Source: an uncultured Actinomycetota bacterium (lineage in GTDB: Bacteria; Actinomycetota; Actinomycetes; JAHEKZ01). Taken from it: 64,000 nt of DNA. The DNA lies in NCBI GenBank assembly GCA_963829525.1, contig CAWHIJ010000003.1, positions 1,024,001 through 1,088,000 on the forward strand, in the 5' to 3' direction. The notes under the pieces were generated by a model. It saw nothing but the letters and a program-made list of their open reading frames with translations, did no database searches and had not been told where the DNA came from. The number at the start of each line of letters is the position of its first letter. Within the stretch, counting starts at the first letter, position 1. Positions 4,632 through 64,000 of this stretch are shown here, in pieces. The position numbers were made by a program, and so were the translations under genes.

Positions 4632-5282
4632 ATGACCGTGGCCACTGACCTCGCGCTACCCTTGCGCCCAATGAGCCAAGAAGATGCACCCACGGAATCC
4701 GTTGACGAGCGCGCCGCAAGGTTCGAGCGCGATGCCCTGCCGTTCCTCGACCAGTTGTACGGCGCAGCTCTGCGCATGACGCGCAACGCCAGTGATGCCG
4801 AGGACCTCGTCCAAGAGACCTACGCCAAGGCCTTTGCTGCATTCCACCAGTACAAGGACGGCACCAACCTCAAGGCCTGGCTCTACCGCATTCTCACCAA
4901 CACCTTCATCAACACGTACCGCAAGAAGCAGCGCGAGCCCCAGCAGAGCGGCGCGGACGAGATCGAGGACTGGCAGTTGGCGCGTGCTGAGTCGCATACC
5001 TCACGTGGACTCCGCTCGGCTGAGGTCGAGGCACTCGACCGGCTGCCTGACTCCGACGTCAAGGACGCTCTGGCTGCTCTGTCTGAGGACTTCCGGATGG
5101 CGGTCTACCTGGCCGACGTCGAGGGATTTGCCTACAAGGAGATCGCCGAGATCATGGACACACCCGTGGGAACAGTCATGTCCCGGTTGCACCGCGGCCG
5201 CCGTCAACTGCGGGGGATGCTCGAGGAGTACGCCAAGGAGCGAGGGTTTGTTCCTGCTGGAACCGGCGGTGACCTCACATGA
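4632..5282 (+). CDS. sigR: ECF sigma factor SigR/SigH (thiol-stress)
   Basis: [58 protein letters not shown]; followed by ZAS anti-sigma. Confidence 0.92.
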
Positions 5283-5563
5283 CCACCCACGATGCCCGCG
5301 GTCATGACCTCGATTGCTCAGACGTAGTTGAGGCCGTCTACCTCTACATTGACGGTGAGCTCAGCGCCGATGTCATCGACAACATCCGCAGCCATCTCGA
5401 CGACTGCTCGCCGTGCCTCCAGGAGTACGGGATCGAGCAGGAGGTGAAGGCGTTGATCGCACGCAGTTGTTGCGAGACGGCGCCAGATGCACTGCGGGCG
5501 TCGATCGTTTCACGCCTAGAGATCGTGAGAACCGAGATGACCATCAAGTTCGACCGCGACTGA
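5279..5563 (+). CDS. rsrA: Zinc-binding anti-sigma factor RsrA/RshA
   Basis: HLDDCSPC (HxxxCxxC) with upstream Cys and C-terminal CC..AP..LR; ATGA overlap with the sigma gene. Confidence 0.92.
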
Positions 5564-5607
5564 GGTCGGCCACGATCTCAACCGACTTCTGAACTGCCCA
5601 CCCAACT

Positions 5608-5682
5608 TCAGGACGTGGGGCGGTTGCCGTGGTTGGCCTTCTTCTTCTTGCGGTCGCGACGCTTGCGGGCGCGCTTGCTCAT
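5608..5682 (-). CDS. 50S ribosomal protein bL37 (24 aa, absent from ORF track)
   Basis: MSKRARKRRDRKKKKANHGNRPTS with AGGAG SD; K.NHG.RP signature and position after rsrA. Confidence 0.88.
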   Translation of the reverse strand: MSKRARKRRDRKKKKANHGNRPTS

Positions 5683-5753
5683 CGTGACTCCTGCTGCTGG
5701 CTACTGGGGGGCGCCGCATCTGCGGCATGTCATGGTCCCACATAGGCCAGGCG

Positions 5754-6449
5754 TCAGCCCAATCGGCGGTTGACCGCCGCCAGCACTGCCCTTGCCACGG
5801 CATCGGTCTCGTCCCCCCGGATCACCGCGCTACCTGCCAGCGACTGAGCGCCGAGCCTCGGAACAGACAAGGTGATGACCACGAGGGCGACGGCATGAGT
5901 GCCCGTGTCGACGACGGCTGAGCTTTCGACAGCAGCCGGGAGCCCGAGCAGCTCGTCGAGCGCGCTGAGGGTCGCCGACGCCACCAGACGTGGGCGGGCG
6001 CTTGCCGCGGCTGCGCCCCGTTCGATGCCCACGAATGTGTCGCCGTCGAGCTCGAGTCGTACCTCGACCTCGATCTCCGACCCGGTACTGCGTATTCCGA
6101 TCTCGCTGATCATCGGACGCGCTTGCGCCTCGATCTCCTCGAGGATGTCCGCCGCAGGTGCCGGACCCGCTTCGGACATGTCGATGACGGTTGAGCCAGC
6201 ATCCTCAGTGGATGACTCGTCCTCGATCTGGACGACACTGACGATCCGGTGGTCGAGGTCGATGTCGAACTGGGCCATTGCCAACGACTGAACGTCGCGG
6301 ACAACCTGTTTCGCGGGCTTACCGGGGGCAGCTAGGACGTGCACCTCGGTCGGCTGTGCGTGGGCGTCGGTCACCACGCTGACCGCTCTGACTCCGGGGA
6401 TCTGCCGGATCGACTCTTCGAGGTCCGGAAGTAGGCGCAGGCTCGGCAT
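5754..6449 (-). CDS. Conserved hypothetical protein; C-terminal half resembles the LeuA allosteric domain
   Basis: EVHVLA..KPAKQVVRDVQS N-domain, acidic linker, then beta-beta-alpha pattern ending DAVARAVLAAVNRRL. Confidence 0.65.
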   Translation of the reverse strand: MPSLRLLPDLEESIRQIPGVRAVSVVTDAHAQPTEVHVLAAPGKPAKQVVRDVQSLAMAQFDIDLDHRIVSVVQIEDESSTEDAGSTVIDMSEAGPAPAADILEEIEAQARPMISEIGIRSTGSEIEVEVRLELDGDTFVGIERGAAAASARPRLVASATLSALDELLGLPAAVESSAVVDTGTHAVALVVITLSVPRLGAQSLAGSAVIRGDETDAVARAVLAAVNRRLG

Positions 6450-49243: not shown

Positions 49244-49308
49244 TAGGACCGGCGAAGGTCACCGAAAGCCCCGTCCGGCAGTTGCCGATGTCCTGAGACA
49301 TCACAGGG

Positions 49309-49381
49309 CGCCCCCGGCACGATTCGAACGTGCGGCCAACTGCTTAGAAGGCAGCTGCTCTATCCACTGAGCTACGGGGGC
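49309..49381 (-). tRNA. tRNA-Arg (TCT)
   Basis: GCCCCCG/CGGGGGC acceptor stem, TAGCTCAGTGGATAGAGC D-arm, CT-TCT-AA loop, GTTCGAAT; CCA not encoded. Confidence 0.96.
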
Positions 49382-49554
49382 GGGACGTGCGGAATTCCTT
49401 GTGGGAAACCTGCTGGACCCTGCCGCGATCTGGTCGGATCGGGGCGGATCAAGTCTAGGGGGCGGACTTCGGCGCTGGTTTGGCCGCAGATGGGGTGTCA
49501 GGGAGCGATTTCGTGGCTCTGAGCCGGTAGTGTGGGCGCGGTTGAGTCCAGGTG
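49373..49554. repeat. Element end, copy 1 (tRNA-proximal)
   Basis: TACGGGGGC-GGGACGTGCGGAATTCCTTGTGGGAAACC...GATCGGGGCGGATCAAGTCTAGGGGGC; homologous to 54523-54704 and 56683-56768. Confidence 0.88.
49452..49457 (-). promoter_or_regulatory. Outward-facing -10 (TAGACT) in the element end, candidate tRNA-Arg promoter
   Basis: TANNNT about 70 nt upstream of the tRNA; copy 2 has TACACT at the same position (54608-54603). Confidence 0.55.
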
Positions 49555-49579
49555 TGGCGATCGGTGTGAGTGCGGGGGG

Positions 49580-50017
49580 TCAGGCAGCCACTTGTGGCGG
49601 TGACTGTTGTCGGTCGATGGCGCGCTGCCAGGTGTGGCGGGCCCAGGCGTTCTGGGCGAGGGCGGCCATCAGCACGATGACGGTCTGGTTGTGGAGACCC
49701 CAGGCGGGGAGTCGCCGGTTGTAGAAGGCGCGCTCGAACTGAGCGTTGAGTGACTCGGTGTCGGCCCGCATGCCGTAGACGCGGGAGTAGTCGGGGTCGG
49801 TCGGGGGTAGGACGCGCAGGTAGTCGCTGCGATTGAACTTGTGCGCCTCGTCCGTTTGCGTGGGGGTGAGCGGCTCCCACCAGTCGTGGATGTCGTCGGT
49901 GGTTCGGCAGGTCAGGGTGTGCCGGGCGTAGAACGCCCACGTCCCATCGGTCTTGCGGTCTCGTTTGGTCTGGTGGCGGGTGACTTCGACGAAGTCGAGG
50001 CTTCCGTCGAACTGCGG
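49580..50017 (-). pseudogene. 5'-truncated DDE-like transposase remnant
   Basis: About 145-codon frame with no start: ...FNRSDYLRVLPPTDPDYSRVYGMRADTESLNAQFERAF...; Y-x2-R-x3-E resembles the IS4-superfamily YREK motif. Confidence 0.6.
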
Positions 50018-50163
50018 TCACGCGGCAGTAAGTGCATGACGGGGCGATCTCTAGTGCTGAAACTTTGATGCGAGGTTGGATGGCTCGAGAGGCCGCACCA
50101 ATTCGGGTTGACCTCCACCCTTCGAGGCCTTCTTCTGCGTATATGAGCGGAGGAAGGAGCCTG

Positions 50164-50700
50164 ATGAGCTCGGAGGCGTGGGCGGAGCTGCGGGATTTCG
50201 TTGCCGCGCGAGGCCTGGCGCTATCTCGGACGGCGTTCTTGTTGACTGGTAGTGAGGCTGCGGCCGAGGACTTGGTTCAGGACACGTATGTGGATGTGGT
50301 GCGGCGGTGGCGTCGGATCGATCATTCCAATCCTGAGCTGTATGTGCGTCGGATCATGTACAGCCGGTTTGTGGATGGATTGCGTCGTCGCCGCCTTCGG
50401 GACTGGGCATTCACCACTGGTGATGTTGAGAGGTTGCCGTCAGCATCGTCACCGGGTCCTGAGGCTGGCGTGGTGGATCGGTTGACGTTTGAGAGGGCAC
50501 TGCAACTGTTGACGCCGCGGCAGCGCGCGGTGTTGGTATTGCGTTTCTACGACGACCTGTCGGAGGCGCAGACGGCGGAAGCGATGAAGGTCAGCCGCAA
50601 CACGGTCAAGAGCCAGACGCGGCTGGCGCTCCGTCGACTGTGTGAGTTGGCGCCGGATCTGGTGCCGTCGGTGTCGGATCTGTCTGAGGGGGTGGGCTGA
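50164..50700 (+). CDS. SigE-family ECF sigma factor
   Basis: FVAARG.AL.RTAFLLTG..AAEDLVQ, LTPRQRAVLVLRFYDDLSE..TA..M....TVKSQ; SD AAGGAG. Confidence 0.9.
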   Translation: MSSEAWAELRDFVAARGLALSRTAFLLTGSEAAAEDLVQDTYVDVVRRWRRIDHSNPELYVRRIMYSRFVDGLRRRRLRDWAFTTGDVERLPSASSPGPEAGVVDRLTFERALQLLTPRQRAVLVLRFYDDLSEAQTAEAMKVSRNTVKSQTRLALRRLCELAPDLVPSVSDLSEGVG

Positions 50701-50701
50701 C

Positions 50702-51411
50702 ATGAACACCCCGTTGCGGGACCGTTTCCAGCAGACCGCGATGAAGGTCCACGAGTTGGGCGACATCGACCGGGCGATCACCGTTGGCGTGGGACAGCAG
50801 GAACCGTACTGTCGCCATCACGACCGCGATCGCAGTAGCTGCGGTCGTCCTACTCGCCGCAGTGATCGTGAGCAGCCCGCTGAAAGGTGCCACCCCCGAA
50901 CCACTCCAACCACCCACCCCGACGCCAGTGTTTGGCTCAGACGTCAACGGCTGGCCGAGCACCGGGCACAACGCGCCAGGTTTCTACTCGCTCGACAACA
51001 AGATGTGCGGATCGATATCCAGGGGTGGCTACTGCAATGTCGGGTGGATGCACAACGGATATGGGTCCGGTGACGTCCAGATTTGGATGGAGGTACGTCC
51101 TGAGGATGGGGGCATCGCGGACGTTGACCCGGGGAGTGGATACCTCGAGAGGCGGCACCCGCGTGGTCGTCGCCGGGTACGAGGGGGTCCACCAAAGAAT
51201 CGCTGACGGACACGAAAGATGGATCGTCGTCATCGATGGACGCACGATCGCCATCGATCTCAAGGCAAAGCCCCGTACCAGCCGGGCGGACCTGGCCGAG
51301 GCCCACACCATCATCGACTCGATTCGCACGGCACCAACAGACAACGTCCTTAACGACCTCGGATACAAGCTCGTCTTCACCCTCACCAACAACGACTGGG
51401 ACTCAGGCTGA
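50702..51411 (+). CDS. Membrane-anchored putative anti-sigma partner (two frameshifts)
   Basis: MNTPLRDRF.. joins a TM segment (TAIAVAAVVLLAAVIV) and an extracellular domain across ORFs 50642, 50784 and 50887. Confidence 0.55.
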
Positions 51412-52169
51412 TGTTGATACAAATAGTGAAGTTCGCCCTTCTTTGCACCGGCGTCGTGCTTGCCGGTGGGTGCTCATCCACCGCACAGGACAGCAACGCC
51501 AATGCAGCGGCGACGACGCCAACCGAGGTGCGCGCATCTGCGAGACCGAGGACAGCTTGCCCGACGGCGTGTTGCCCTTGCCACAGCCCAGCGGCGGCGA
51601 CGACTTCGCCGTCCTACCCGCGGGCCGCTACCAGGTCCCGATCAGCGACACTCTGGCCTACCAGATCGACCTGCCGCAGGGCACTTACGCGTACGACGGT
51701 AAGTACCTCGCCTTCGATCAGGCACGACCGCAACGAATCGCCGGCATCCTGTACGTGGATGAGGCAGGCGACGGGACGGGCGTCTCTCGCGAACCCTGCA
51801 CAAAGCAGGATGAAATCGTGCCGGCGGGGAAGACCTTGGCGGCTCGTCACCGCGATCACCAACCAGCCGATTCTCGATGTGAGCGAGCCCGTGACAGCCG
51901 AGCTCGGCGGAGCGCGGGGGCTCTACCTAGAGGTTCGGATCCCCAAAGACTACAACGCATCCCGCTGCGGTGATGGCGAGATTGGGCTGGTCGGACGTTC
52001 GGGAATGATCCGAAACGCGCTCCCCGGCTACGTCGGTACGTGGTGGGTCCTCAATGTCGACGGGGAACGGATTCTGGTCCAGCCGTACTGCCCCGGACCG
52101 TGCCCCGACAACTCGACCGAGCACCTTAACGAAGTGGCCGAAACGATCACCTTCACGAAGCTCGGTTGA
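51411..52169 (+). CDS. Putative lipoprotein (two compensating frameshifts)
   Basis: Lipobox-like VLAGG-C; the middle part reads in the 51236 frame (LPAGRYQVP...). Confidence 0.55.
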   Translation: MLIQIVKFALLCTGVVLAGGCSSTAQDSNANAAATTPTEVRASARPRTACPTACCPCHSPAAATTSPSYPRAATRSRSATLWPTRSTCRRALTRTTVSTSPSIRHDRNESPASCTWMRQATGRASLANPAQSRMKSCRRGRPWRLVTAITNQPILDVSEPVTAELGGARGLYLEVRIPKDYNASRCGDGEIGLVGRSGMIRNALPGYVGTWWVLNVDGERILVQPYCPGPCPDNSTEHLNEVAETITFTKLG

Positions 52170-52560
52170 CGGTTCCGCCAACAAACGCCAGGAGACAGGG
52201 ACTCGGCGGAAGGCACTTCGAGGAGACGGCACATCGGCAAGGGCCTCCCGAGCCACAGGTGGCCTCGACCACGCCGCGGCGTCAGCACGTCATCAACCTA
52301 ACCCCCTTGCCGCATCATGGGTGGGGGGCGTCGAGCCAGGTGCCGGTGGGGGTCGGGGGGGGGGGGGGGGCAGATACTTGTGGCGGTACCTGTTGTCGGT
52401 CGATGGCCCCACGGCCAGGTCTGACGGATCGAGAGAGTTGGCCGGGTCACAGGTGAACAAGACCATACGGTTGGCATAGCCCCACCGGACGGCACTTCGG
52501 GCGCATCGGTAACAGGGCGGCCTTCTGTCCCTTCTGACAAACAGTCCCTTGGCGGTGTGG

Positions 52561-53130
52561 TCAGCCGGTATGTGCGGACAGGCGCTTGCGCATGGTGACG
52601 AGTGGCACCGCGGTGCCACCCGCTGAGTCCTCCAGGTCCGCGATGGCCGTGAATCCCGCTGCCTCGTAGAGCGGTCGTCCCGCCAATGTGGACACCAACT
52701 CAAGCGTCCGGAATCCCTCCGCCGCTGCGTGGTCCTCGCAGGTCCGAAGCACGAGTCTCCCGACGCCGCGACGCACGTAACTCGGGTGGGTGTACATGGC
52801 GCGGACTCGGGCCGGGTCGGTTGCTGGGTCAAGGAGTGCGGAGTTGCGGCCGCCGGAGTGATCGCCGCCGTACATCGTGGCCCGTCTGCTCCACCCACCA
52901 CAGCCTGCGACGATGCCGCCGACCTCGACGAGGTAGTAGGTGCCGTCGGCAATGAGCTGTCGATCGATTCCCATGATGGCGTGACTCGAGGCGATCTGCG
53001 CGTCGTCGAGGAATCCCCGCTGGAGCACGTCGATGGCCAACTCGACCAACGGCGCCAGGCGGGACATGTCGTCGATGCGGGCCGGTCGGATCGTCAGGTC
53101 GTCCTCGGGAAGACGGTCAGTCTTGTTCAT
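52561..53130 (-). CDS. GNAT acetyltransferase
   Basis: GCGGWSRRATMYGGD, RAMYTHP..RRGVG, TLAGRPLY. Confidence 0.88.
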   Translation of the reverse strand: MNKTDRLPEDDLTIRPARIDDMSRLAPLVELAIDVLQRGFLDDAQIASSHAIMGIDRQLIADGTYYLVEVGGIVAGCGGWSRRATMYGGDHSGGRNSALLDPATDPARVRAMYTHPSYVRRGVGRLVLRTCEDHAAAEGFRTLELVSTLAGRPLYEAAGFTAIADLEDSAGGTAVPLVTMRKRLSAHTG

Positions 53131-54113
53131 TTCGGTGGTCCCCACAGGTCCGTGCTCAGGTACTTCATCCCCGAGTCGGCCAGAACAATCGCCACGGTTT
53201 CCCCGGCCCCAGGTCCGATCAGCCACTGCTCTGCGGCGGCGAGACATGCGCCGGCTGAGAATCCGGCCAGGATGCCCTCGTATCGCGCAAGCCGTCGCGC
53301 GGCTTCCATCGCTTCGTCGTCGTTGACCGTGAGGTAGCCGTCGACAAGGTGCTCCTCGAGCAGCGGTAGGTCCGTCATTGCGTAGCCACCGCCCTGGATG
53401 CGGTGTGATGGATCGGACGGAGGTTGACCCGCCAATACGGGCGCACCGGCCGGTTCAACTACCAGACAGGTGATCGCCTGCCTCTGCTCCTTCAGAAACC
53501 GTGCCACGCCGGCAAAGGTGCCGCCAGTGCCCACGAAGTCGCAGAACATGTCGACAGCGCCGCCGCTCTGCGCCCAGATCTCGGCCGCCGTGCGGTCGTG
53601 GTGAGCGGACGCGTTACCCGACAGATGGAACTGGTCAGCGCGAAAGGCGGCCCGCTCTGTGGCGGTGCGCGCCGCAACTTGTTCGACGAGAGCAAGGTCC
53701 TCGCCCGTCACATGACCGTCAAGCGATCCGTCGCCCTGGTCGACCAAGATCACCTCGGCACCCAGTGCGCGCATCATCTGCTCCCGTTCGCGTGAGTTTC
53801 CGGCCGACATCACCGCGACGAACGGATAGCCCTTCACCGCGCAGACCACGGCCAGTCCCGTGCCCGTGTTTCCGCTCGTGAGTTCGACCACGGTCTGCCC
53901 CGGTTGCAGCCTGCCGGATGTCTCAGCGTCTTCGATCATCCGCAGAGCGATTCGGTCCTTCTTCGACCCACCCGGGTTGAGGTATTCCAACTTCGCCAGG
54001 ATGCGACCGTTCAAGCCGCGACCGATCCGGACCAACTCGACCAGCGGTGTGTTACCGATGCTGGTGAGGACGGAAGGATCGACGCCACGACCCATGGGGC
54101 CTTCAACGGTCAC
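53127..54113 (-). CDS. PLP-dependent cysteine synthase family protein
   Basis: IGNTPLV, KLEYLNPGGSKKDR, ELTSGNTG, GTGGT, DSGMKYLST. Confidence 0.9.
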   Translation of the reverse strand: MTVEGPMGRGVDPSVLTSIGNTPLVELVRIGRGLNGRILAKLEYLNPGGSKKDRIALRMIEDAETSGRLQPGQTVVELTSGNTGTGLAVVCAVKGYPFVAVMSAGNSREREQMMRALGAEVILVDQGDGSLDGHVTGEDLALVEQVAARTATERAAFRADQFHLSGNASAHHDRTAAEIWAQSGGAVDMFCDFVGTGGTFAGVARFLKEQRQAITCLVVEPAGAPVLAGQPPSDPSHRIQGGGYAMTDLPLLEEHLVDGYLTVNDDEAMEAARRLARYEGILAGFSAGACLAAAEQWLIGPGAGETVAIVLADSGMKYLSTDLWGPPK

Positions 54114-54504
54114 CGCTCTAATGTACGGCCCTGCTGCCCGGGCCCCCCTGGGTTTCTAGCGCTGGCAGACCACGCGTGCCGCTGGGTATAGCTCGGTGTC
54201 GAGGGGGAACGCCCTTATGCGCCACTCGCGATCACACGTCCCAGTCCTCGAGGCGTCCGGTGATGTCTGTGTCGTTCACTTCCCGCGAGGGCGTGGCGTT
54301 CGAACCCCATGCGGGCCACCGGCTCGTCGCCGCGGCCATAGGTCCACATTTTTCCTGGCTGAGAGGCCTGCTCGCAGGGTACTGGACGCGTCGAGGGGAA
54401 TCCGATCGGACAGCGCTTGTGCTTCCGGATCCGGTTAGATCCACTTCCAAAGCTCCCTCGCGCCCTAGGGAACTCACTGGTCAAGTGGTTCGCCTGGGGT
54501 TTCA

Positions 54505-54704
54505 CGCACGTCCTACGGGGGCTACGGGGGCAGGACGTGCGGCAATTCCTTGTGGGAAACCCCTTGGAGCCTGCCGCGACCTGGTCAGATCGGGGCGGAT
54601 CAAGTGTAGGGGGCTGGATTCTGAGGTGCTTTGGCCCCAAGGCGAGTGTCAGCGGGTCGTTTCTCGACCCCCGGATCCGCGAGCGGGCGCGGCTGAGCCA
54701 GGTG
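54505..54704. repeat. A/B junction: inverted ends around a doubled target, plus element end copy 2
   Basis: CGCACGTCC-TACGGGGGC-TACGGGGGC-AGGACGTGCG; next 80 nt about 90% identical to copy 1 by eye, patchy similarity to 54704. Confidence 0.88.
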
Positions 54705-54806
54705 CCTTGGCGGCCCGCCTTTGGCTTCGATCCGATGTCGAGTTGTGGAAGCGGAGCCGCGTGATTGGCTGAACTCTTCCGGCGTGCGATCATCAGCCGG
54801 CCGCCA

Positions 54807-55555
54807 TCATGACGTCGGCGAGTGAGTCGACGCAAGCAGCTGGTCAGCCAGGTGGACGGCGATCTTCCGCTGGGCACGTGATGGTCGGACGACGCGGTCG
54901 CCGCTCGACACGATGAAACACCCGTGGCTCCCATCGTGCGGGACGATCGCCACCTCGACGCTGGTGGGTAGTCCGTCTCGGTCGACATCGACGACGTGGC
55001 TGTCAAGCCGTACCTGACCGTCGGACCCCAGCGCCGGCACCCGGGGATCCGTCGGAGCCTTCGACGCATAGCGACACGAGGAGACTCCGAGAACGAGTGC
55101 AATGCGGCTGGCGATCGCCGATGAGACCGTGGTGTCTCCCGCTGCGTTCTTCGCCAGAGTTGCGGTCTCGAGCACCCCGTCGAGGTATCCGGCCTCACGG
55201 CTTGCTCGCGCAGCCTGTCGTCGTCCCCACAGGGCGAGCTCGGTTGCGGCTGCCCCGATGACGACGAGCAGCACAGCCGCCTCGACCTCGTCCGGGTTGT
55301 CGATGGTCAAGGTCTGGTATGGCTGCGTGAGAAAGAAGTCGAACCAGATGCCCGCGCCTAGGGCGGCGACGAGCCCGGCAACGCGGTCGCCCGCCGCCGC
55401 GACGGCGAGCACGATGACGACTAGACGAGAACCGCCGTGGATGAGCTGATTGACTCGCGGGCCAGAGCCAGAAGAGCGGCGACCCCGAGTGGTGCTGCGA
55501 GGGCGAACCAGATCAGTCGCGTCCGCGGGATGGTGGCCGATGTTTCGGTGAGCAT
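54807..55555 (-). CDS. DUF4118 (KdpD TM-like) membrane protein (frameshift near 55425)
   Basis: G..AGLVAAL...WFDFFLTQPYQTLTI; N-terminus lies in the 55421-55624 frame. Confidence 0.7.
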
Positions 55556-55690
55556 GGGACCCTCCAAGCCGTGTCCGTATTCCGGACATCCCCAGTGTGA
55601 CGCGTTCATCACCCGGCGGCGCAATTCTTGACGTCATCCTTACGGGCGCGTCTCCACGGCGAACCCTCGAGCCGACAAGAGACTGGCCGC

Positions 55691-56648
55691 ATGCTGCGCA
55701 TGCAGGTGTTCGTCCCCACAGAGCTGACCGACGAGGTCACCGCAGTCTTCACAAACGAGCCGGCCGTCAGTGGACTGGCCGTGATGCGCGGGGCTGCAGT
55801 GCGTCCCGCCGGTGACGTGGTGCTGGCCGAGGTCGCCCGGGAGGCGGCGAACGGCGTGATCGACATGCTCCACGACCTCGGAGTGCACCGACGCGGCTCG
55901 CTCCACTCGAGCAGGTCAACGCCTGGATCTCGCGTGAGGGCCGGAGGCGGAGACCAGCGCACCCGGAAGCAGCGCGGACGCCGTCGCGCGGGCCGACGTG
56001 ACTCATCGCGCGTACGCGGACGCCGAGCTGAACTGGACCTATCTCGGCTTCATGACTCTCGCCACGCTGATCGCGGGAATCGCGATCGTGCTCGACTCGC
56101 AGGTCCTCGTCATCGGTGCGATGGTCCTCGGTCCCGAGTTCGGTCCGATCGCCGCGCTGGGGGTCGCTCTGGTTCGTCGCCGTTACCACCTGTTGCAGCT
56201 GTCGACTCGAACACTGCTGATCGGCTTCGCAGTCGCAATCGCTTTGACGACGCTTGCCTCGTTGCTGGGACGCTGGCTGGGATGGATCGAGCCCTGGCAG
56301 GTCAGCGGGGCTCGACCGCTCACCGCCTTCATCTACAGCCCGGACAAATGGTCATTCATCGTCGCGATCGTCGCTGCCGCCGCCGGTGTGCTGTCGTTGA
56401 CCTCCGAGCGAGTGGGGGGCCTCTCGGGAGTCTTCATCTCCGTGACCACGGTGCCCGCTGCAGGCAACATCGCTCTCGGCCTGGCGTTCGGCCAGTGGAA
56501 CGAGGTGCGCGGCAGTGCCGCGATGCTGGCCATCAACCTCACCGGCATGGCGCTAGCCGGTTGGGCCACGCTTGCCCTCCAGCAGGCGGTCTGGCACGGG
56601 GTGGTGTCGAGGCGTCGACGTCGAAGGCCTGCCGCGGGCACCGACTGA
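55691..56648 (+). CDS. DUF389 membrane protein (frameshifts near 55910-55990)
   Basis: DS.VLVIGAMVLGPEFGPI, GVFISVTTVPAA; N-domain EVAREAANGVI. Confidence 0.78.
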
Positions 56649-56670
56649 TCGTTCTCATTCGCCCACGGAA

Positions 56671-56768
56671 CACGCACGTCCAACGGGGGCGGGACGTGCG
56701 GAATTCCTTTGTGGGAAAACCGTTGGACCCTGCCGCCCGGAAGCACCGTGGGCGACTGGTCGGATCAA
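56671..56768. repeat. B/C junction: inverted ends around a single target, plus decayed element end copy 3
   Basis: CACGCACGTCC-AACGGGGGCG-GGACGTGCGGAATTCCTTTGTGGGAAAACC..TGGACCCTGCCGC...CTGGTCGGATCAA. Confidence 0.85.
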
Positions 56769-56813
56769 TGTCGTTCAACTCCAGGGGCCGGGCCCTTCGC
56801 CTGGGATCGGCAG

Positions 56814-57859
56814 ATGCTCCGGAGTTCCGCAAGCCCACGATCGAGCAGCTCGCGACGGTGATCAAGCCGATCTGGGAGGAGCTCGTCGGTGGCGGGGTAC
56901 GCCCACGACCGGCTGATGGAGATCTGGGCCGAGCACCGCCCGGACGTGATCGTCTCCGACAACGTGGTGGGCTTCGCGGCGGTGCCCCTGGCCGGTGTGC
57001 CGTGGGTTCGGATGGTCTCGGCGAACCCACTGGAGATGGAAGCCCCCGACCTGCCACCGCCGTTCTCGGGTCTGCCCACAGACGACCCACGCGGATGGGC
57101 GGAGTTCACGGCGGAGTACCGCCGACTGCACGACCCGTCGATCGCGGAGCTCAGCGAGCTTCAACGTGTCGGTGGGCGCCGACCCTTTGCCCGAGGGCCA
57201 CTTCCAGTACAACTCGCCGTACGCCAACCTGTACCTGTTCCCGGAGGTGATGGACTACCCGCGGCCGACCCGCTCGACTCCACGTGGACACCGCCTCGAC
57301 ACCACGGTTCGCACCGGCGAGGAGCCCTTCGACGTCGACTCGGTGCTGCCGGGTGACGGCAAGGTGGTCTACCTGTCGATGGGGAGCCTGGGCTGCAACG
57401 ATCTCGGAGCTGATGCAGCGACTCATCGACGCGCTCGACCAGACCCCCCACCGGGTGATCGTGAGCATGGGCCCGCTCGAGGACCAGATGGAGCTCGGGG
57501 AGCGGATGTGGGGCGGGAGTTCCTGCCGCAGCCGTCGATCCTGCCGCAGTGCGACCTGCTGATCACCCACGGCGGCAACAACACGGTGACCGAAGGGTTC
57601 AACTTCGGACTGCCGATGATCGTGCTGCCCGCTGTTCTGGGACCAGTACGACAACGCGCAGCGGGTGCAGGAGCGGGGCTTCGGTCGGCGGCTCGACACG
57701 TACGGGGCCACGCAGGACGAGATCGTCACGGCGGTGGACGAGCTGCTCGCCGACAGCGCCCTCAAAGCCCGGATGACGGAGATCTCCCGCCAGCTGCAGG
57801 CCGCCCCCGCCCAGGAACGGGCGGCAGATGTCGTCGAGCAGCTGGCCGACGGCACGTGA
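56814..57859 (+). pseudogene. UDP-glycosyltransferase (MGT-like), N-terminus missing, several frameshifts
   Basis: RPDVIVSDNV, VYLSMGSLG, LPQPSILPQCDLLITHGGNNT..E, WDQYDNA.R spread over three frames. Confidence 0.75.
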
Positions 57860-57995
57860 CTACCTAAGAGAGTCCGGTGGACGCGTGAGGAGTCGCTAGC
57901 GGTTCTCCTCGTCGATCACATCGAGGACCGGGCAGCCCAGGGCGGCGGTGGAGCACTGCCGGGGAGTGGCATCGCATGCCCCGACAGCGCGACCG

Positions 57996-58457
57996 TCAAT
58001 CCAAGCAGAACTCGTTGCCTTCTGGGTCGGTCATCACGATGTGCCCGGCGCTCATCGGGGGTTCGGGCTCGTAGCGGCGAACCCGCGTCGCCCCCAGCGA
58101 GACGAGTCGGTCGCACTCGACCTCCAACGCCGCCATCCGCTCCTCCCCCTCAAGCTCGGGAGCCGCCCGAACGTCGAGATGCACACGGTTCTTGGCGGCC
58201 TTGTCCTCGGGCACCTGCTGGAAGAACAAGCGTGGTCCATGTCCATCGGGGTCCTCAATCGCCGATCGCGTGTTGCGCTGGTCTTCCGGTACGCCGACCC
58301 TGGCCAGGAACTGATCCCACGCGGCCAGTGGGTCAGTGCCCCCCGGCAGGGAAACGCCGGGCGGACCTGGGTGGACGTAGTCCAAGACATCGCGCCAGAA
58401 CGATGACAGCGCTCGCGGATCGTGGGCATCGAAGGTGACCTGGAGATGACGGCTCAT
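57996..58457 (-). CDS. VOC/glyoxalase family protein
   Basis: QVTFDAHDP.AL..FW, PRLFFQQVPE.K..KNRVHLDV, DPEGNEFC. Confidence 0.9.
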   Translation of the reverse strand: MSRHLQVTFDAHDPRALSSFWRDVLDYVHPGPPGVSLPGGTDPLAAWDQFLARVGVPEDQRNTRSAIEDPDGHGPRLFFQQVPEDKAAKNRVHLDVRAAPELEGEERMAALEVECDRLVSLGATRVRRYEPEPPMSAGHIVMTDPEGNEFCLD

Positions 58458-58629
58458 GACAGGGAGGGTGCCAGAACAACCCCTTGGTAATCGAGCGCGT
58501 GTTCCCGATCAGCAAACCTCTCGGGCGGATCGGGGCATAGCTGCCGAGCCCGGCGCAGTAGCCTCCGGACATGCCCAAGTACGGACAGGTCGGTGAGGTC
58601 CCCCGCGACCTGGAAGGGCGGGTCGCACG

Positions 58630-59756
58630 GTGACAGACGGCCAGACGGAGGGGCCCGACGCCAACGGGGCGGATCCTGCATCGGCGCCACGAAGTCCGAC
58701 CGCTCGGTGGCCGCACGGATCCTGTTCAACCGACGCGTGGTCAAGGCCGTTGGGATACTCATCGTTATCGGCCTGATCTACTACTCCTTCTTCGTGGTGC
58801 TCCCCAGCGAGGTCAACTGGTCGGAACTGTGGGCCGACATCCAGGACCTCAGCGCCGGCGAGATTCTGAGCCTGACCGCCGCGGGGCTGCTGACGATGGT
58901 CGCTCTGGGCTGGGCATCCAAAGCGTCGCTGCCAAGGCTGAGCCCTGTACCGGGGTTCGAGTCTTCGGCGACCAGCCAGCTCAGTGCCTTCGCCTTCCCG
59001 CCACCTGCAGACCTCGCCATCCGCTTCGCGATGTACCGGACGTATGGATTCACCGACGAGCAGTCGGCGGTCGCCGTCCTGATCGCCATGGTGGCCCGCT
59101 ACGCGATCGTGGTTCTCATGCCGGTGCTCGGACTGGCGGCAGTGCTCGTCACTGGACAGGGCACCTGGACCGGGTTCTGGTGGTTCCTCGGATTGGGGAT
59201 CACCTTCGTGATTGTGCTGTGGCTGATCATCCGAGTGGTACGCAGCGAGGCGGCTGCGCACGCCACAGGACGATTGGTGCAGCGGTCCGCGAGCTGGGTG
59301 ATCACAAGGTTTCACCACACACCGCCCGACGACCTGGAGAACAGCGTTGTGAAGTTCGGTGCCCGGACCAGGGGCACGATCGACACCAACGGGCGCGCCC
59401 TCGTCGTCTCGAACCTCGCGTGGGGGCTGGCGAACGCGTTGGTCATGGCCTTGGCTCTGCGGTTCTCCGGGCTCGGTCATGAGGCGGTCACCAGCGCCGC
59501 TGTGTTGCTGACCACGGGACTGGTGATGGCGATCAACATGCTGCCGATCCCTGGCAAGGACGCGCTCGCAGTCACCTGGCTCGCCGGTGTCTTGAGCCTG
59601 ACGAGCAGCGCGGACTCGTCCGCGCTGGCAACTGCACTGCTGCTCTACCGCATAGTCACCTGGCTGTTGCCGATGCCGGTTGGCGGGATCACCTTCTTCG
59701 CGTGGCGGTACCGAGTGCGTCGGGACAAGGTGACGACGGTGTCGACAACCTCCTGA
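58630..59756 (+). CDS. Lysylphosphatidylglycerol synthase TM / flippase-like membrane protein (start uncertain)
   Basis: About 8 TM segments, ALLLYRIVTWLLPMPVG; probable indel near the 5' end. Confidence 0.7.
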
Positions 59757-59821
59757 CCCCGCGCTTGGATAGGCCGTGGGCGCCAGACGGAACAAGGAAC
59801 AAGGAACATAGGTGAGAGACG

Positions 59822-61846
59822 ATGAGAACACCGATCTACGTCGGAGGGCTCGACGTCTCCGCTCGGGCAGGCGCGCTGCTCGGGGCAGCGAGCACGGGCT
59901 TGTCGTTCCAGCCGAATCTGTTGTCCCGGGGGACCAGGGACCAGGCGATGATCAGCGGCGTTGCCGCGGCGACAGCGTTCGGGTGGGGCACGTCGGCTCA
60001 CTCTTTCTTGCGCTCCACGGCAGATCGGCTGCCGTTCGCGACGCGCTCGTCGACAGGTCGGATCATTTCCGGCCTGGTCGTTGACGCCACCGCCGCGGCG
60101 GTCGGAGCGGCTGCGCTTCGTACGGTTCCGGCACGCGAACACGAGTCGAACCGTCGGGCGCTGGCCCGGCTGGCGGCAACCGGTGCCATGGCCGCAGGCG
60201 CGGCCGGGATCGGTGCCGACCTGCTGGAGTTTCGGCGTGATCGGCCAGGTGGCCGATTGGCCACGTTGCTCACCGCACTGGCCAGCAGCGGTGCCTCCTA
60301 TGCCGCGACCCGTCCGCGACGGACGATGATCGGTTCGGTCACCCCCGGTGAGGGTCGAGGCGCACGAGAACGTGCACCGTGAGGTCTCGCCACCACAAGC
60401 GATCGCCTCGGGGGTGGCCATCACCCTTGTGCTGATCGGCGTTGCCCGAGGCGAGTCGGCTCTCAGCTCGGGTCTTTCCCGGGCCTCGGCGACACGTCCT
60501 CGGCGGATCGCCTCAGGACCACCGGGCGTTGGGCCGTCTGGGAGCTTTTGGCGCGTTGGCCGGACTGGGCTGGCTCGCGGTCACCGCGGCCAACCACAAG
60601 CTGTCAGCAGTCGGCGACGACGTCGAGATCGCGAACCTGCGGGCTCCCGATCTTGCCGAGGTCACTGGTAGCCCGGCGTCGCACATCCCGTGGTCGGACC
60701 AGTCGCGAGAGTCGAGCCGTTGGCTGTCGACTGTCCTGCGCCGCGAATCGATCTGCGCGGTCATGGGTGAGCCGGCCAACAGCCCATCCGCGTCTACGCC
60801 CCGCTGTCCAGCGCGGACACCGAGGAGCAACGCGCCGAACTGCTGCTGGCCGAGATCGACCGCACCGGGGCGCTGGACCACCCGTGTTCGCGCTGTTCTC
60901 CCCCACCGGATCGGGCTACGTGAACTACGTGGCCACCGACACGTTCGAGTACTTGGCGCGCGGCGACTGCGCGTCGGTCGGCATCCAGTACTCGGTGCTG
61001 CCCTCGGCGTTGTCCCTCAACAAGGTCGGAATGGGAACCCCGCCGACGAAGATGGTCGTCAACGGCATCATCGAGCGACTCCTGCAGCGCCCAGTGGACA
61101 AGCGCCCGCGGTTCGTCATGTTCGGCGAGAGTCTCGGGTCGCAGGTGAGCCAGGAGATGTTCCGCGGGCAAGGCATCACGGGTCCGGCCGGGATCGGGCT
61201 GGAGGCTGCGGTCTGGATCGGCACGCCCAACGCCACCGAATGGCGCGATGAGATCTGGGGCGACCGCTCGGTCTCGCAGGTGCCGTCCATCGGCCCGGGC
61301 GGCGCATTCCTGCCGCGGGCTGTGCGCGACTGGCACGGGCTGTCAGCCGAACAGTCCGCGCAGGTCAAGTACCTGCTGCTGCAGAACGGCGACGACCCGA
61401 TCCCGAAGTTCGGCCCGTCACTGTTGTGGCGCCAGCCGGCGTGGCTCGGTCCCGACGCCACGCGTCCCCCCGGTTCCCCACGCGGCACGGACTGGCGGCC
61501 GGTGGTCACCTTCTTCGCCACGTTCCTGGACATGCAGAACGCGCTGAGCCCGACGCCGGGGTCCTTCGACGAAGGTGGGCACGACTACCACCGCGAGATC
61601 CCGGAGGCCATCCGCACGGTGTTCGCGCTCGAGACCAGCGACGAGCAGTTCGCACGAGTGCAGCAGGCCCTGCGCCGTCGTGAGCTGATGTGGGAGACCG
61701 ATCGCCTGTGGCGAGCCGCCCAAACTACGTCGACACCCGAGCGGGAGGCGGCTGAGGAGGCCGTCATCACCAAGGTCGCGGGATGGACCGGCCGAGAGGT
61801 TGATCGAGCAGCGGTCGAGCAGATCGTGCTCGGCGACACCGACTGA
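59822..61846 (+). CDS. Membrane alpha/beta hydrolase (Abhydrolase_9-like), multiple frameshifts
   Basis: PTGSGYVN, QYSVLPS, FGESLG, DDPI, GHDY across ORFs 59822, 60348, 60442 and 60548. Confidence 0.72.
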
Positions 61847-61864
61847 GTGGTACCGGAGGCCGTC

Positions 61865-62547
61865 GTGAGCATTGAAAGCCGACGTGTCCTGTTCGTCTAC
61901 TTCTCGTACACCCAGCAGACTCGTCGTGTCGTAGACGCGATGGCCACGGTGCTCACGGCCCGGGACTACGAAGTGACCAAGGCGGCGCTTGAGTTCTCTG
62001 ACCCGCACTACGGGAAGCGCTTCTGCCAAGTTGCCGATGAGCTGGCCGATCGCCAAGATCGTTCGGGATGCTGCCGGCGCAGGTGCGACGGAAGACCGGC
62101 AACGGTCGGGATCCCGGCCGAAGCAGCCAGTGGCGACTATGACCTGGTGGTGATCGGGTCGCCGACGTGGTGGCTGACGACCTGCATGCCGGTCAGGTCC
62201 TACCTGCACGACCCCGCCGCTGCGAACGTCCTGAACGGCAGGCCCTTCGCCGTCTTCACCACCTCGCGTCGCTACTTACAAGAACAACATCAAGACGATG
62301 CGTGAGCTCGGCGAGAAGCACGGCGGGCGGTTCGTCGGTGACACGCCACTTCGTCTCGGACGGCAACCAGGTGATGTCGATGTGGTCGTGGCTCGTGTTC
62401 ATGCGGCACAACGTCGAGAAGCGCCGCTCGTATGGGGTGCCGCTGCCGAAACCAAACCTCTCAGAGGGCTTCGGCCGTGAGGCAGTCGATTTCATCACCC
62501 GGGTGTCCGCTGAGGCCCTGGCACAGTCGACGCCCGAGGCGAACTGA
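61865..62547 (+). CDS. Flavodoxin-like protein, frameshifted
   Basis: VYFSYTQQT, YDLVVIGSPTWW, PVRSYL, PFAVF. Confidence 0.68.
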
Positions 62548-62606
62548 TCGGAACGGGTCGCTCCGACGCGCCGTAGGCTGCGACTCGACATCGATGGAGG
62601 CTACGC

Positions 62607-63480
62607 ATGGCCAAGGCCAGAGCCAACCGCGGGGCCGTCGTCGTCACGGGAACGTCCACCGGGATCGGCGCAGCGACCGCCGCGCACCTGGCCGAGCTCG
62701 GGTTCACCGTCTTAGCCGGTGTGCGGACTCTCACCGACGACGAACCCCCCGGCGAGGCCAGCCAAGGCGTGACGCGCATTCGCCTCGACATCACGGACGA
62801 AGCGTCCGTTGCCACGGCGGTGCGCACGGTGTCTCGAGCCGTCGGTGAGCGGGGCCTGGTCGGCTTGGTGAACAACGCGGGGGTCGTCAAGCCCGCACCG
62901 ATCAGACTTCCAGCCGCTGGCCGACTTCCGAGAACAGCTCGAGGTCAACCTGGTGGGACACGTGTTGGTCATCCAGTCCTTCCTTCCGCTGATCCGGCGC
63001 GGGCACGGTCGCGTTGTCAACGTCGGCTCCATCGGCGGCCGGCTGGTTCTCCCCATCCACGGTGCCTACAGCGTGTCCAAGTTCGGCATGGAAGCGCTGA
63101 CGGATGCCCTACGACTGGAGCTTCGCCAGTGGGACATCCCGGTCAGCCTGGTCGACCCCGGGGCCACCGACACGGCCATCTTCGGAAAGACCCTGGCAGA
63201 GTTCGATCGTCTCGAGACGACGATCAGTGCCGACGGTTACCGTTTGTACGCTGAACAGATCGCGGCGCTGAGAGAGACCGTGGTGAAGACCTCCGAAAAC
63301 ACCGATCCGGCCCAGGTGCTGGCGAAGACAGTTGGTCGCGCGATGACATCGGACCGTCCGAGGACGCGCTATCTGGCCGGAAAGGGCGCCCGCAAGGCGG
63401 CGATCCTGGCAAGAATCGTCTCTGACCACGCCAAGGATCTTGCGATCGCGAAAGACGTCGGGCTCCCGAAACCGGAGTAG
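62607..63480 (+). CDS. SDR oxidoreductase, frameshift near 62900
   Basis: VTGTSTGIG, LVNNAG, NVGSIGG, YSVSK. Confidence 0.8.
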
Positions 63481-63551
63481 CTCGGTTCCGGGTGCGGCTG
63501 ACGTCCGGCGTCGAACCAATCATGGCCCGCACGGCACTCAGGAACTGACCG

Positions 63552-64000
63552 TCAGAGTCCTGTCTCTGCCTGGGCGCGACCGGTCTTCACAGCTTCCTTG
63601 AGCGCCGCGTAGTCATGCTCGTTCTGGTCGGCGTAGAGCTCAGCGAAGTCGGCGATGGCCTCGTCGAACTTGGTGGAGCCGCCCAGGTACGACGCTATGG
63701 CGAGGCGATCACCGGAGCGCGCATGGGCTCGGGCCAGCGTCCACGCGCAGAGTGCTGAGCGTAGAGATCCATGCCCTTGGGGATCATCCTTTCGATCGGG
63801 AAGGAGAACTTCCAGTCCCGCAACTGTAGGGTATCGAAATCCCGGTCGATTCCATCGGCACCGGTGACTCGATCCCAACCCAGAAAGATGTCACTCGTTG
63901 CTTGCATCAAGTGCTGACCGGCGACCACGCGTTGACCTTCATTGCCATACTTCGTGTCTCCGCAGAAACTTGATAGGACTGAGGGTTGGGCTTCCTTGCC
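63552..64000 (-). CDS. DUF2252 family protein, 3' part (frameshifted, runs off window)
   Basis: GQRVVAGQHLMQATSDIFLGW, QLRDWK, LCAWTLARAHARSGD, YADQNE.DY. Confidence 0.8.

Follow-up and report, generated by a model that had tools for sequence, protein, structure and literature searches.

A probable family of site-specific DNA transposons inserted at the first base of actinobacterial tRNA genes, and the putative tRNA promoter carried by their end

The tRNA-Arg(TCT) gene and the DNA upstream of it

The stretch of DNA analysed here, hereafter the window, is a segment of 64,000 nucleotides (nt) from the genome of an uncultured Actinomycetota bacterium (genome G000, 2.96 Mb, 66% G+C; contig C3, positions 1024001 to 1088000). 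It carries a tRNA-Arg(TCT) gene on its minus strand, and this work deals with the DNA that immediately precedes this gene. The ~640 nt located 5' of the tRNA are probably what remains of the right part of a decayed DNA transposon, specific in both site and orientation and belonging to an unannotated family; this transposon would insert against the first base of the tRNA gene, and its end would provide this gene with a promoter and a leader. Other genomes, contigs and loci are designated below by numbers preceded by G, C and L, and the copies of the element found in the genome of the window by c1 to c7. The features adjoining the tRNA are the following.

49309–49381, minus strand: tRNA-Arg(TCT) gene (Rfam RF00005, 71.6 bits)
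49373–49381, minus strand: GCCCCCGTA, the start of the tRNA (9 nt), a target copy of which 8 or 9 base pairs (bp) recur at the left ends of the elements
49382, minus strand: single C between the terminal repeat and the tRNA +1, present in 25 of 25 tRNA-adjacent copies
49383–49417, minus strand: right terminal inverted repeat and conserved transposon end, with the 9-mer CGCACGTCC at 49391–49383
49457–49452, minus strand: TAGACT, a conserved −10-like hexamer, with a predicted start at about 49444–49446 and an implied leader of about 63–65 nt
49583–50011, minus strand: C-terminal fragment (residues 372–514, 143 amino acids, aa) of a gene encoding a DDE transposase-like protein of about 515 aa

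An initial annotation of this DNA assigned all of the sequence located 5' of tRNA position 1 to the element. This assignment holds, since 49383–49391 is the terminal 9-mer CGCACGTCC of a family with seven copies in the genome. The same annotation placed the tRNA start at 49382, which appears to be one base off. Indeed, ARAGORN gives the tRNA as 49306–49382 (minus strand) and includes C49382 as an extra 5' base, and this C, the last base of the element (position −1), is able to pair with G73 (49309), so that ARAGORN draws an acceptor stem of 8 bp. Both this pairing and the end given by Rfam point to 49381, which is most likely the canonical +1. Among the 46 tRNAs of the genome, this is the only one with a TCT anticodon; AGA and AGG codons are used at 2.2 and 4.8 per 1,000, respectively (497 long open reading frames).

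A repeat family with stacked copies

The sequence formed by the ~130 nt that precede the tRNA and by its first 9 nt occurs seven times in the genome, and the family also has many copies in relatives. Two copies adjoin a tRNA gene, whereas the others are stranded or truncated.

Genome 1073374, window 49374: copy c1, adjoins tRNA-Arg(TCT)
Genome 1078521, window 54521 (54505–54663, minus strand): copy c2, stranded, a junction of two stacked elements, with TACACT at 54608–54603 and the repeat 9-mer at 54541–54533
Genome 1080683, window 56683 (56673–56791, minus strand): copy c3, stranded, a junction with a single core, with the right-end 9-mer at 56700–56692 and the left-end 9-mer at 56681–56673
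Genome 1107792, beyond the window: copy c4, stranded
Genome 1127810, beyond the window: copy c5, truncated
Genome 2727301, beyond the window: copy c6, stranded
Genome 2732133, beyond the window: copy c7, adjoins tRNA-Arg(CCT)

The copies that do not adjoin a tRNA display a constant order, CGCACGTCC, C or T, core and GGACGTGCG, i.e. two inverted 9-mers around the start bases of a tRNA. The inverted repeats (right end CGCACGTCC, left end GGACGTGCG) are exact over 9 bp and extend to 12 bp in some copies. The core tracks the local tRNA: it reads GCCCCCGTA in the copies near tRNA-Arg(TCT) and GCCCTCGTA in those near tRNA-Arg(CCT). Between the right and left ends, the core can be doubled: exactly (9+9) in c2, where it occupies 54514–54531 and is followed on the minus strand by the left-end 9-mer (54513–54505), and minus one base in c4 (C3 ~1107780–1107800) and in locus L095 of another genome (~2310–2327). 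As judged from their sequence, these doubled cores look like the footprint left by the excision of a middle element, two target copies having been joined.

A transposase-like protein outside the named families

The coding fragment found next to the tRNA is the 3' part of a longer gene, and its homology to the other copies ends sharply at 50022, in this genome as in relatives; copy c6 retains residues 193–514. An open reading frame first chosen from third-position G+C content (49580–50017) was discarded because its translation is Arg/Pro-rich nonsense and a neighbouring frame is the real one. Relatives encode 54 full-length homologues of 490–531 aa, none of which has a Pfam domain (0/54); 15 of the 54 carry a name in their source record, always 'hypothetical protein', and the 39 others carry none. 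Within the 20 genomes examined from the same bacterial family, the element was found in 13, all copies being fragments or interrupted by stops, and no copy was found in the seven others.

Judged by its sequence, the element is outside every named family. No Pfam transposase family was detected in six full-length proteins (E up to 0.1), and a profile search of the PDB sequences returned no match. In NCBIfam, only the last ~50 residues match the IS1182 and IS1380 models (E 0.004–0.1), and the full-length scores (11.5–16.1 bits) lie far below the cut-offs of 180–270, so that the protein does not belong to these families. The AlphaFold model (predicted local distance difference test score, pLDDT, 84.9) has the Tn5 transposase as its top structural match (Foldseek E 5.5e-6; VIA Z 15.8, root-mean-square deviation 4.5 over 293 residues), followed by piggyBac (Z 10.2) and by other DDE transposases (Z around 6). 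Furthermore, an alignment of 16 sequences shows no variation at D193, D295 and E457. These invariant residues and the predicted fold argue for an RNase-H-like core with a DDE triad, an assignment made at the level of fold and alignment rather than of a residue-level superposition on the Tn5 triad.

More distant relatives, with 28–30% identity, are annotated as hypothetical on plasmids of Mycobacterium and Streptomyces. One of them, on plasmid pI of Streptomyces mirabilis (L125, 3010–5533, 28% identity), is preceded by an overlapping gene encoding a 318-aa 'hypothetical protein', a two-gene layout that is also that of the chromosomal elements.

Boundaries of the element and choice of the target

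In the genome of a relative, G016 (L065), a near-full gene (residues 14–514, two stops) is included in an element of ~2.24 kb. The left boundary of this element is GCCCTCGTA followed by GGACGTGCG, and its right boundary is CGCACGTCC, a C and GCCCCCGTA, the last of which continues into the tRNA. The two copies of the target repeat, GCCCTCGTA at the left end and GCCCCCGTA at the right, differ by one mismatch, and the length of the repeat, 8 or 9 bp, is ambiguous since base 9 of the tRNA is an A.

When one genome per species was scanned, a relative of the protein was found encoded at 34 loci. At 22 of them, a tRNA gene called by ARAGORN lies ~190–210 nt after the transposase-like gene, always on the same strand; these tRNAs are Arg(CCT) in 15 cases, Arg(TCT) in five and Lys(TTT) in two. 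The 12 other loci comprise contigs that run out, stranded copies facing the left end of another element, short partial matches and L072, in which the end is followed by a tRNA-Lys-like start at which no tRNA was called. Records of Nocardioides, Jiangellales, Propionibacteriales and Streptomycetales are among the carriers, and their proteins are ~50% identical to that of the copy in the window. In all 25 readable tRNA-adjacent copies, the conserved end ...GGTTT(T/C)CC..CA......CGCACGTCC followed by one C adjoins the tRNA +1. The copies were tallied from 50 matches to a loose pattern, from which 12 that lack the rest of the end were set aside as chance matches and one stranded copy was cut by the start of its contig. 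An occurrence of GGACGTGCG at L069 (position 5006) was rejected as a left end, as it sits between two genes of the element (encoding a helix-turn-helix protein and a recombinase-like protein) with no core before it.

Taken together, the inverted repeats, the target repeat of 8–9 bp, the Tn5-like DDE protein and the stacked copies with doubled cores point to a DDE transposon. The element would insert with its right terminal inverted repeat and one C against the +1 of a tRNA-Arg or tRNA-Lys gene, duplicating the first 8–9 bases of this gene, so that the tRNA would stay intact but be cut from its own promoter. As each insertion would regenerate the target, repeated insertions would lead to a stack of decayed copies upstream of the tRNA.

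A −10-like hexamer conserved in the element end

The minus-strand TAGACT that the initial annotation reported at 49457–49452 is found there and is the sole TANNNT of this strand within 49383–50100. Copy c2 keeps the TANNNT pattern, as that annotation also stated, with TACACT at 54608–54603 in the same register. A lone TAGACT in DNA of 66% G+C means little, and the weight of the observation comes from its recurrence in 15 of 15 lineages. The conservation of the −10 across element ends from many genomes, which had been proposed as a check, was examined on 15 ends picked as mutually diverged (median identity of 57% over the 104 nt beside the conserved tip, 69% for the closest pair). All 15 carry a TANNNT in the same interval of 11 positions, starting at −74 to −83 from the last base of the element; the rest of these 260-nt ends, 3,660 positions in total, contains only two more. 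The variants observed are TAGACT, TAGAAT, TAGGAT, TAAAAT and TACACT. Positions 1, 2 and 6 are constant and the middle bases vary, as in a sigma-A −10 element.

The hexamer is in register in 25 of 25 tRNA-adjacent copies versus 9 of the 12 stranded copies that could be assessed (Fisher P 0.03, hand-computed, the copies not being independent). The three stranded copies devoid of it are c3, which has TGGAGT in the hexamer register (56783–56778) and has thus lost its −10, L082 (TGGACT) and L074 (TAGATA).

Proposed replacement of the tRNA promoter by the element end

The initial annotation suggested that an insertion at the 5' end of a tRNA gene is tolerated because the element brings a replacement promoter. 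The comparative data lend strong support to this proposal, as the hexamer is kept where its surroundings diverge and is lost only in stranded copies, and the end of the element quite probably supplies both the promoter and the leader of the tRNA. An outward −10 of the sigma-A type (TANNNT, here TAGACT), lying ~75 nt inside the right end, would direct transcription from a start located ~7 nt 3' of the hexamer, near 49445. A leader of ~65 nt of element DNA, including the terminal repeat, would then run into the tRNA and would be removed by RNase P.

Several observations weigh against this reading. The nominal binomial probability of the recurrence of the hexamer, ~1e-33, is overstated, as the lineages are related and as the interval of 11 positions was set after the data had been seen. 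The persistence of the hexamer in three quarters of the assessable stranded copies implies that retention alone is no proof of selection via the tRNA. A scan of 49250–50100 for E. coli-type −35 and −10 boxes returned no promoter (and no terminator), and no −35 box shared by the 15 lineages at a distance of 16–18 nt was found by eye; many actinobacterial promoters are devoid of a −35. In 6 of the 15 lineages, the hexamer is followed by a stable hairpin (z < −1.5), which would oppose a promoter if it acted as a terminator; such a hairpin is not general, the mean z being −1.14 over the 15 lineages. Contigs from RNA libraries cover not only the tRNA, the leader and the transposase fragment, but also the DNA upstream of the predicted start. 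This upstream coverage could reflect read-through, DNA carry-over or other organisms, and contigs are by nature unable to show starts. These contigs were assembled from the four runs compared (three recorded as RNA and one presumed to be RNA) and are mostly 88–95% alike to the window, hence from relatives; of the 15 runs retrieved by a search, none contained more than 0.11 of the sampled words. Finally, no convincing left end or upstream copy of the core was found for the distant intact elements, for which 13–14 distant loci were searched.

The hairpin deserves a separate remark: in the window (49405–49450) and at the equivalent positions of other copies, it is formed by unrelated sequences in different lineages, and it may serve as a binding site, stabilise the 5' end or terminate transcription of the transposase gene.

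Some of these observations would be expected if the tRNA were transcribed by read-through from upstream promoters (those of the transposase gene, of cargo genes or of neighbours), the hexamer then being a site for the transposase or for a host factor, or a 3' signal of the transposase gene. Indeed, the scan found no −35 box, the hairpin that follows the hexamer in some lineages is what the terminator of an upstream gene would look like, and the RNA-library contigs reach beyond the predicted start, although this last point is weak. However, the fixation of positions 1, 2 and 6 with a variable middle is the signature of a −10 and not of a protein operator, and relics from Nocardioides, described below, hold the hexamer after the transposase gene has gone. 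Furthermore, read-through is less likely in the window, where the transposase gene breaks off at 50022 and is preceded by a divergent gene encoding an extracytoplasmic function (ECF) sigma factor (50164–50700). On balance, transcription of the tRNA by read-through is an unlikely alternative.

Relatives without the element and decayed copies

Genome G018 belongs to another genus of the same family and shares with the window a syntenic neighbourhood of tRNA-His, exonuclease, Usp and tRNA-Arg(TCT). The transposase was not detected in this genome (completeness 90%), in which the tRNA-Arg(TCT) lacks a terminal repeat and has a TACACT of its own at −18 to −13. The presence of a promoter-like hexamer 13–18 nt upstream of the tRNA implies that an insertion of at least 2 kb at the +1 would cut the tRNA from a promoter at that position.

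The initial annotation considered that its proposal would fall if the same upstream sequence preceded the tRNA in uninserted relatives. The terminal ~56 nt of the element are absent from G018, as well as from G014, in line with the proposal, whereas the 19-nt hexamer region of G018 resembles that of the element: cccCTACACTTGGTCCGCC and ccccTAGACTTGATCCGCC, respectively, are identical at 17 of 19 positions, a score reached by 2 of 300 shuffles (L099, contig C1 of G018, ~4743–4765, versus window 49440–49462). This likeness may be the fossil of an old insertion, may mean that a host promoter was captured by the element, or may result from convergence.

It is also one of the observations that would fit a leader made of native host DNA, segmentally duplicated together with the start of the tRNA, with no mobile element involved. 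In the same vein, two tRNA-Arg loci of the genome have a common leader, a common upstream gene fragment and a nearby amine-oxidase paralogue, and the same leader is present in all the g1, g3 and g4 relatives read. Such a duplication would not account for the terminal inverted repeats and the repeated and doubled cores, nor for the Tn5-like DDE fold of the protein or for the occurrence of the same end next to tRNA-Lys genes and in distant orders, at ~50% protein identity. Together with the lack of any detected copy in seven of the 20 genomes of the family and the absence of the terminal ~56 nt from G018 and G014, these data have largely refuted this explanation, which is now very improbable.

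Nine tRNA-Arg(CCT) loci of Nocardioides, in which likeness to the repeat was judged by eye, can be arranged from the intact element to its absence.

One locus (Nocardioides agariphilus KCTC 19276, L069/L111): intact element, with TAGGAT as its hexamer
One locus (L120): decayed transposase remnants and a degenerate end
Two loci (L118 and L119): TAGACT and a degenerate terminal repeat alone, lying 42–49 nt 5' of the tRNA; no transposase detected within 1.5 kb
Five loci: no recognisable repeat

This series of sequences is consistent with a decay during which the promoter-bearing tip would outlive the rest of the element.

Accessory genes of the full copies

The full copies (L066–L072 and L084) carry two more conserved genes directly 5' of the transposase gene, as seen by tblastx comparison of their upstream regions; among these copies, L066 shares 85% identity with the type present in the window. 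Both accessory genes have been lost from the copies of the window. In L069, they encode a 73-aa protein (4656–4877, minus strand) and, on the opposite strand, a protein of ~290 aa (5058–5924, plus strand). The small protein, which has no Pfam match, displays by eye an excisionase-type helix-turn-helix (HTH). The larger one matches Phage_int_SAM_1 in five of eight sequences and Phage_integrase in two of eight (Pfam), and its predicted structure (pLDDT 88.6) is similar to the integrases of Brujita and lambda and to XerA (Foldseek E ~5e-9), so that, according to this model, it has a tyrosine-recombinase fold. However, in the alignment of the eight sequences, compared by eye with the XerD motif, the position of the nucleophile Tyr is variable, the first catalytic Arg is absent and the second is found in five of eight; from these sequences, the protein appears catalytically dead.

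These genes bear on the mode of arrival of the element, which could have been a site-specific recombination at the core with inverted, att-like arms rather than a DDE transposition. This would leave the promoter proposal unchanged. The junctions do consist of 9-bp inverted arms around a spacer of ~10 bp, and distant full elements hold genes encoding a tyrosine-recombinase-fold protein and a Xis-like HTH protein beside the transposase-like gene. However, the recombinase-like protein appears devoid of a conserved nucleophile Tyr and of the first catalytic Arg, the doubled cores of c2, c4 and L095 resemble the footprints of a cut-and-paste mechanism, and no integrase is found in the 54-kb stack: between c1 and c5, neither PF00589 (tyrosine recombinases) nor PF00239 (serine recombinases) has any match. 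Moreover, the repeats hold the first 8–9 nt of the tRNA and not its 3' part, as those of integrase-type elements would. Arrival by recombination is therefore doubtful, if somewhat less so than transcription of the tRNA by read-through, and a DDE transposition is preferred.

A precedent exists for an inactivated recombinase in a DDE system. TnsF, a protein of the Tn7-like element Tn6022, is an inactivated derivative of a tyrosine recombinase that selects the target (Faure et al. 2023, PMC10293859). By analogy, it might be conjectured that the recombinase-fold protein described here is a target selector as well. Tn6022 resembles the present elements in being a DDE transposon found at one conserved host site and associated with an apparently dead protein of tyrosine-recombinase fold; it differs from them in its target, which is comM instead of a tRNA start, the transposase being Tn5-like here. 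No TnsB, TnsC or TniQ gene was seen beside the transposase gene in L066–L072 and L084 by tblastx of the upstream regions, which included no search aimed at Tns families.

Stranded copies and gene content of the stack

Copy c2 has an intact hexamer that faces a left-end remnant and then two genes oriented in the same direction.

53127–54113, minus strand: PALP (cysteine-synthase-like) gene, 3' of c2 on the same strand, ~490 nt from the c2 hexamer
52561–53145, minus strand: GNAT gene, 3' of c2 on the same strand as the PALP gene

From this geometry, c2 could read into the PALP/GNAT pair, as the initial annotation suggested. The stranded copies c4 and c6 face genes located on the opposite strand, which means that the layout of c2 is not general.

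This arrangement raises the question of whether a genuine outward promoter primarily serves the element, reading through the junctions of stacked or joined ends into the next left end and its genes, the expression of the tRNA being a by-product. Stranded copies do face the left ends of other elements, most of them keep the hexamer, and c2 is followed by the co-oriented PALP and GNAT genes. However, the hexamer has been lost by 3 of the 12 stranded copies and by none of the 25 tRNA-adjacent ones, it is retained in transposase-free relics, and the genes that face c4 and c6 have the wrong orientation. A promoter acting mainly for the element is thus quite improbable, even less likely than read-through, although it would be compatible with the replacement of the tRNA promoter.

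The 54-kb stretch that extends from c1 to c5 is full of gene fragments and of partial duplicates of genes located further along. The ~34 kb situated 5' of the tRNA (window 49400–64000, continuing to position 1107800 of contig C3) display low coding scores and many truncated genes, among which are those of a sulfatase, an aminotransferase and an amidohydrolase as well as pieces of complex I. The same stretch holds partial copies of genes that are intact 20–50 kb further on; for example, 56816–57888 is 92% identical to a glycosyltransferase gene (C3 1128279–1129351). Close to each of the element-bearing tRNA-Arg loci is an amine-oxidase gene, and these two paralogues share 82% identity over 1,617 nt (C3 1129471–1131085 and 2718662–2720278). 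A relic of ~107 nt (52321–52427), 74.5% identical to 49532–49640, matches the region of the transposase stop codon; it lies without the leader inside what the initial annotation called element A. The far boundary of the stack could not be placed from G018, whose upstream flank is not syntenic with that of the window.

At the other element-bearing locus, a weak match (17 bits) to the C-terminus of a tyrosine integrase lies directly 3' of tRNA-Arg(CCT) (C3 2732352–2732432), and this tRNA gene may be used from both sides by elements of different kinds.

Comparison with known mobile elements

Outward promoters located at the end of an element are known from IS10 (pOUT), ISAba1 and IS6110. As is proposed here, the promoter carried by the end of these insertion sequences drives an adjacent host gene. 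In their case, the activation is incidental and occurs at varying sites, whereas the present elements always lie at the +1 of a tRNA gene and in a single orientation, so that an essential promoter would be replaced at every insertion.

The elements also share with Tn5/IS50 and IS4-like elements a predicted transposase fold (Z 15.8), a D/D/E triad, terminal inverted repeats and a target repeat of 8–9 bp, the target duplication of Tn5 being 9 bp. They differ from them in that their transposase has no Pfam family, their target and orientation are strict and their full copies carry two accessory genes.

Integrase-mediated elements that target tRNA genes restore the 3' end of the tRNA. The elements described here are similar to them in their landing site, in leaving a working tRNA and in forming stacks separated by repeats of tRNA sequence. 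However, it is the 5' end of the tRNA that they use, no active integrase was found and the body of the tRNA is kept through target duplication. Landing at the first base of the gene means that the element has to replace the promoter, unlike the 3'-end cases, which rebuild the tRNA; what must be supplied is therefore a promoter and a leader here, and tRNA sequence there. The initial annotation called this a mirror image of the restoration of the 3' end. The image is apt for the outcome and not for the mechanism, which looks like DDE transposition with target duplication and not like integrase recombination.

Homing to regions of transcription initiation is known for other elements. The yeast retrotransposon Ty3 inserts at the transcription starts of tRNA genes, and DDE elements of the TnGBS/ISLre2 type reportedly insert just upstream of sigma-A promoters. 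With these elements, insertion takes place upstream and the gene stays under its host promoter, whereas here the element lies between the promoter and the gene. No description of a bacterial transposon inserting at the 5' ends of tRNA genes was found in the full-text literature searched, a scope that leaves subscription journals and ISfinder outside. The combination described is that of an outward mobile-element promoter and a site-specific DDE transposon, both of which are of known kinds.

Possible impact on the host and on the family

A more complete scenario can be put forward tentatively. A Tn5-like transposase, guided by the dead recombinase-fold protein, would land at the +1 of tRNA-Arg or tRNA-Lys genes in one orientation; the element would thereby bring its own genes under the strong native promoter of the tRNA and supply the tRNA, in exchange, with a substitute carried in its end. 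As the tRNA would depend on this substitute, the last ~80 nt of the element could not be lost and would survive as the tRNA promoter after the decay of the rest, as in the Nocardioides relics and possibly in G018. If this scenario were true, many 'native' promoters of actinobacterial tRNA-Arg genes would be fossil transposon ends.

If confirmed, the replacement of the promoter by the element end would be a novel means by which a transposon avoids harming an essential gene present in a single copy, and would put the expression of a host tRNA, here the sole decoder of AGA, under the control of transposon DNA. The elements would constitute a new, so far unannotated family of highly site-specific DDE transposons, and such insertion systems are of interest as tools. 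Globally, their repeated insertion would explain the stacks of accessory genes found 5' of tRNA-Arg genes in Actinomycetota.

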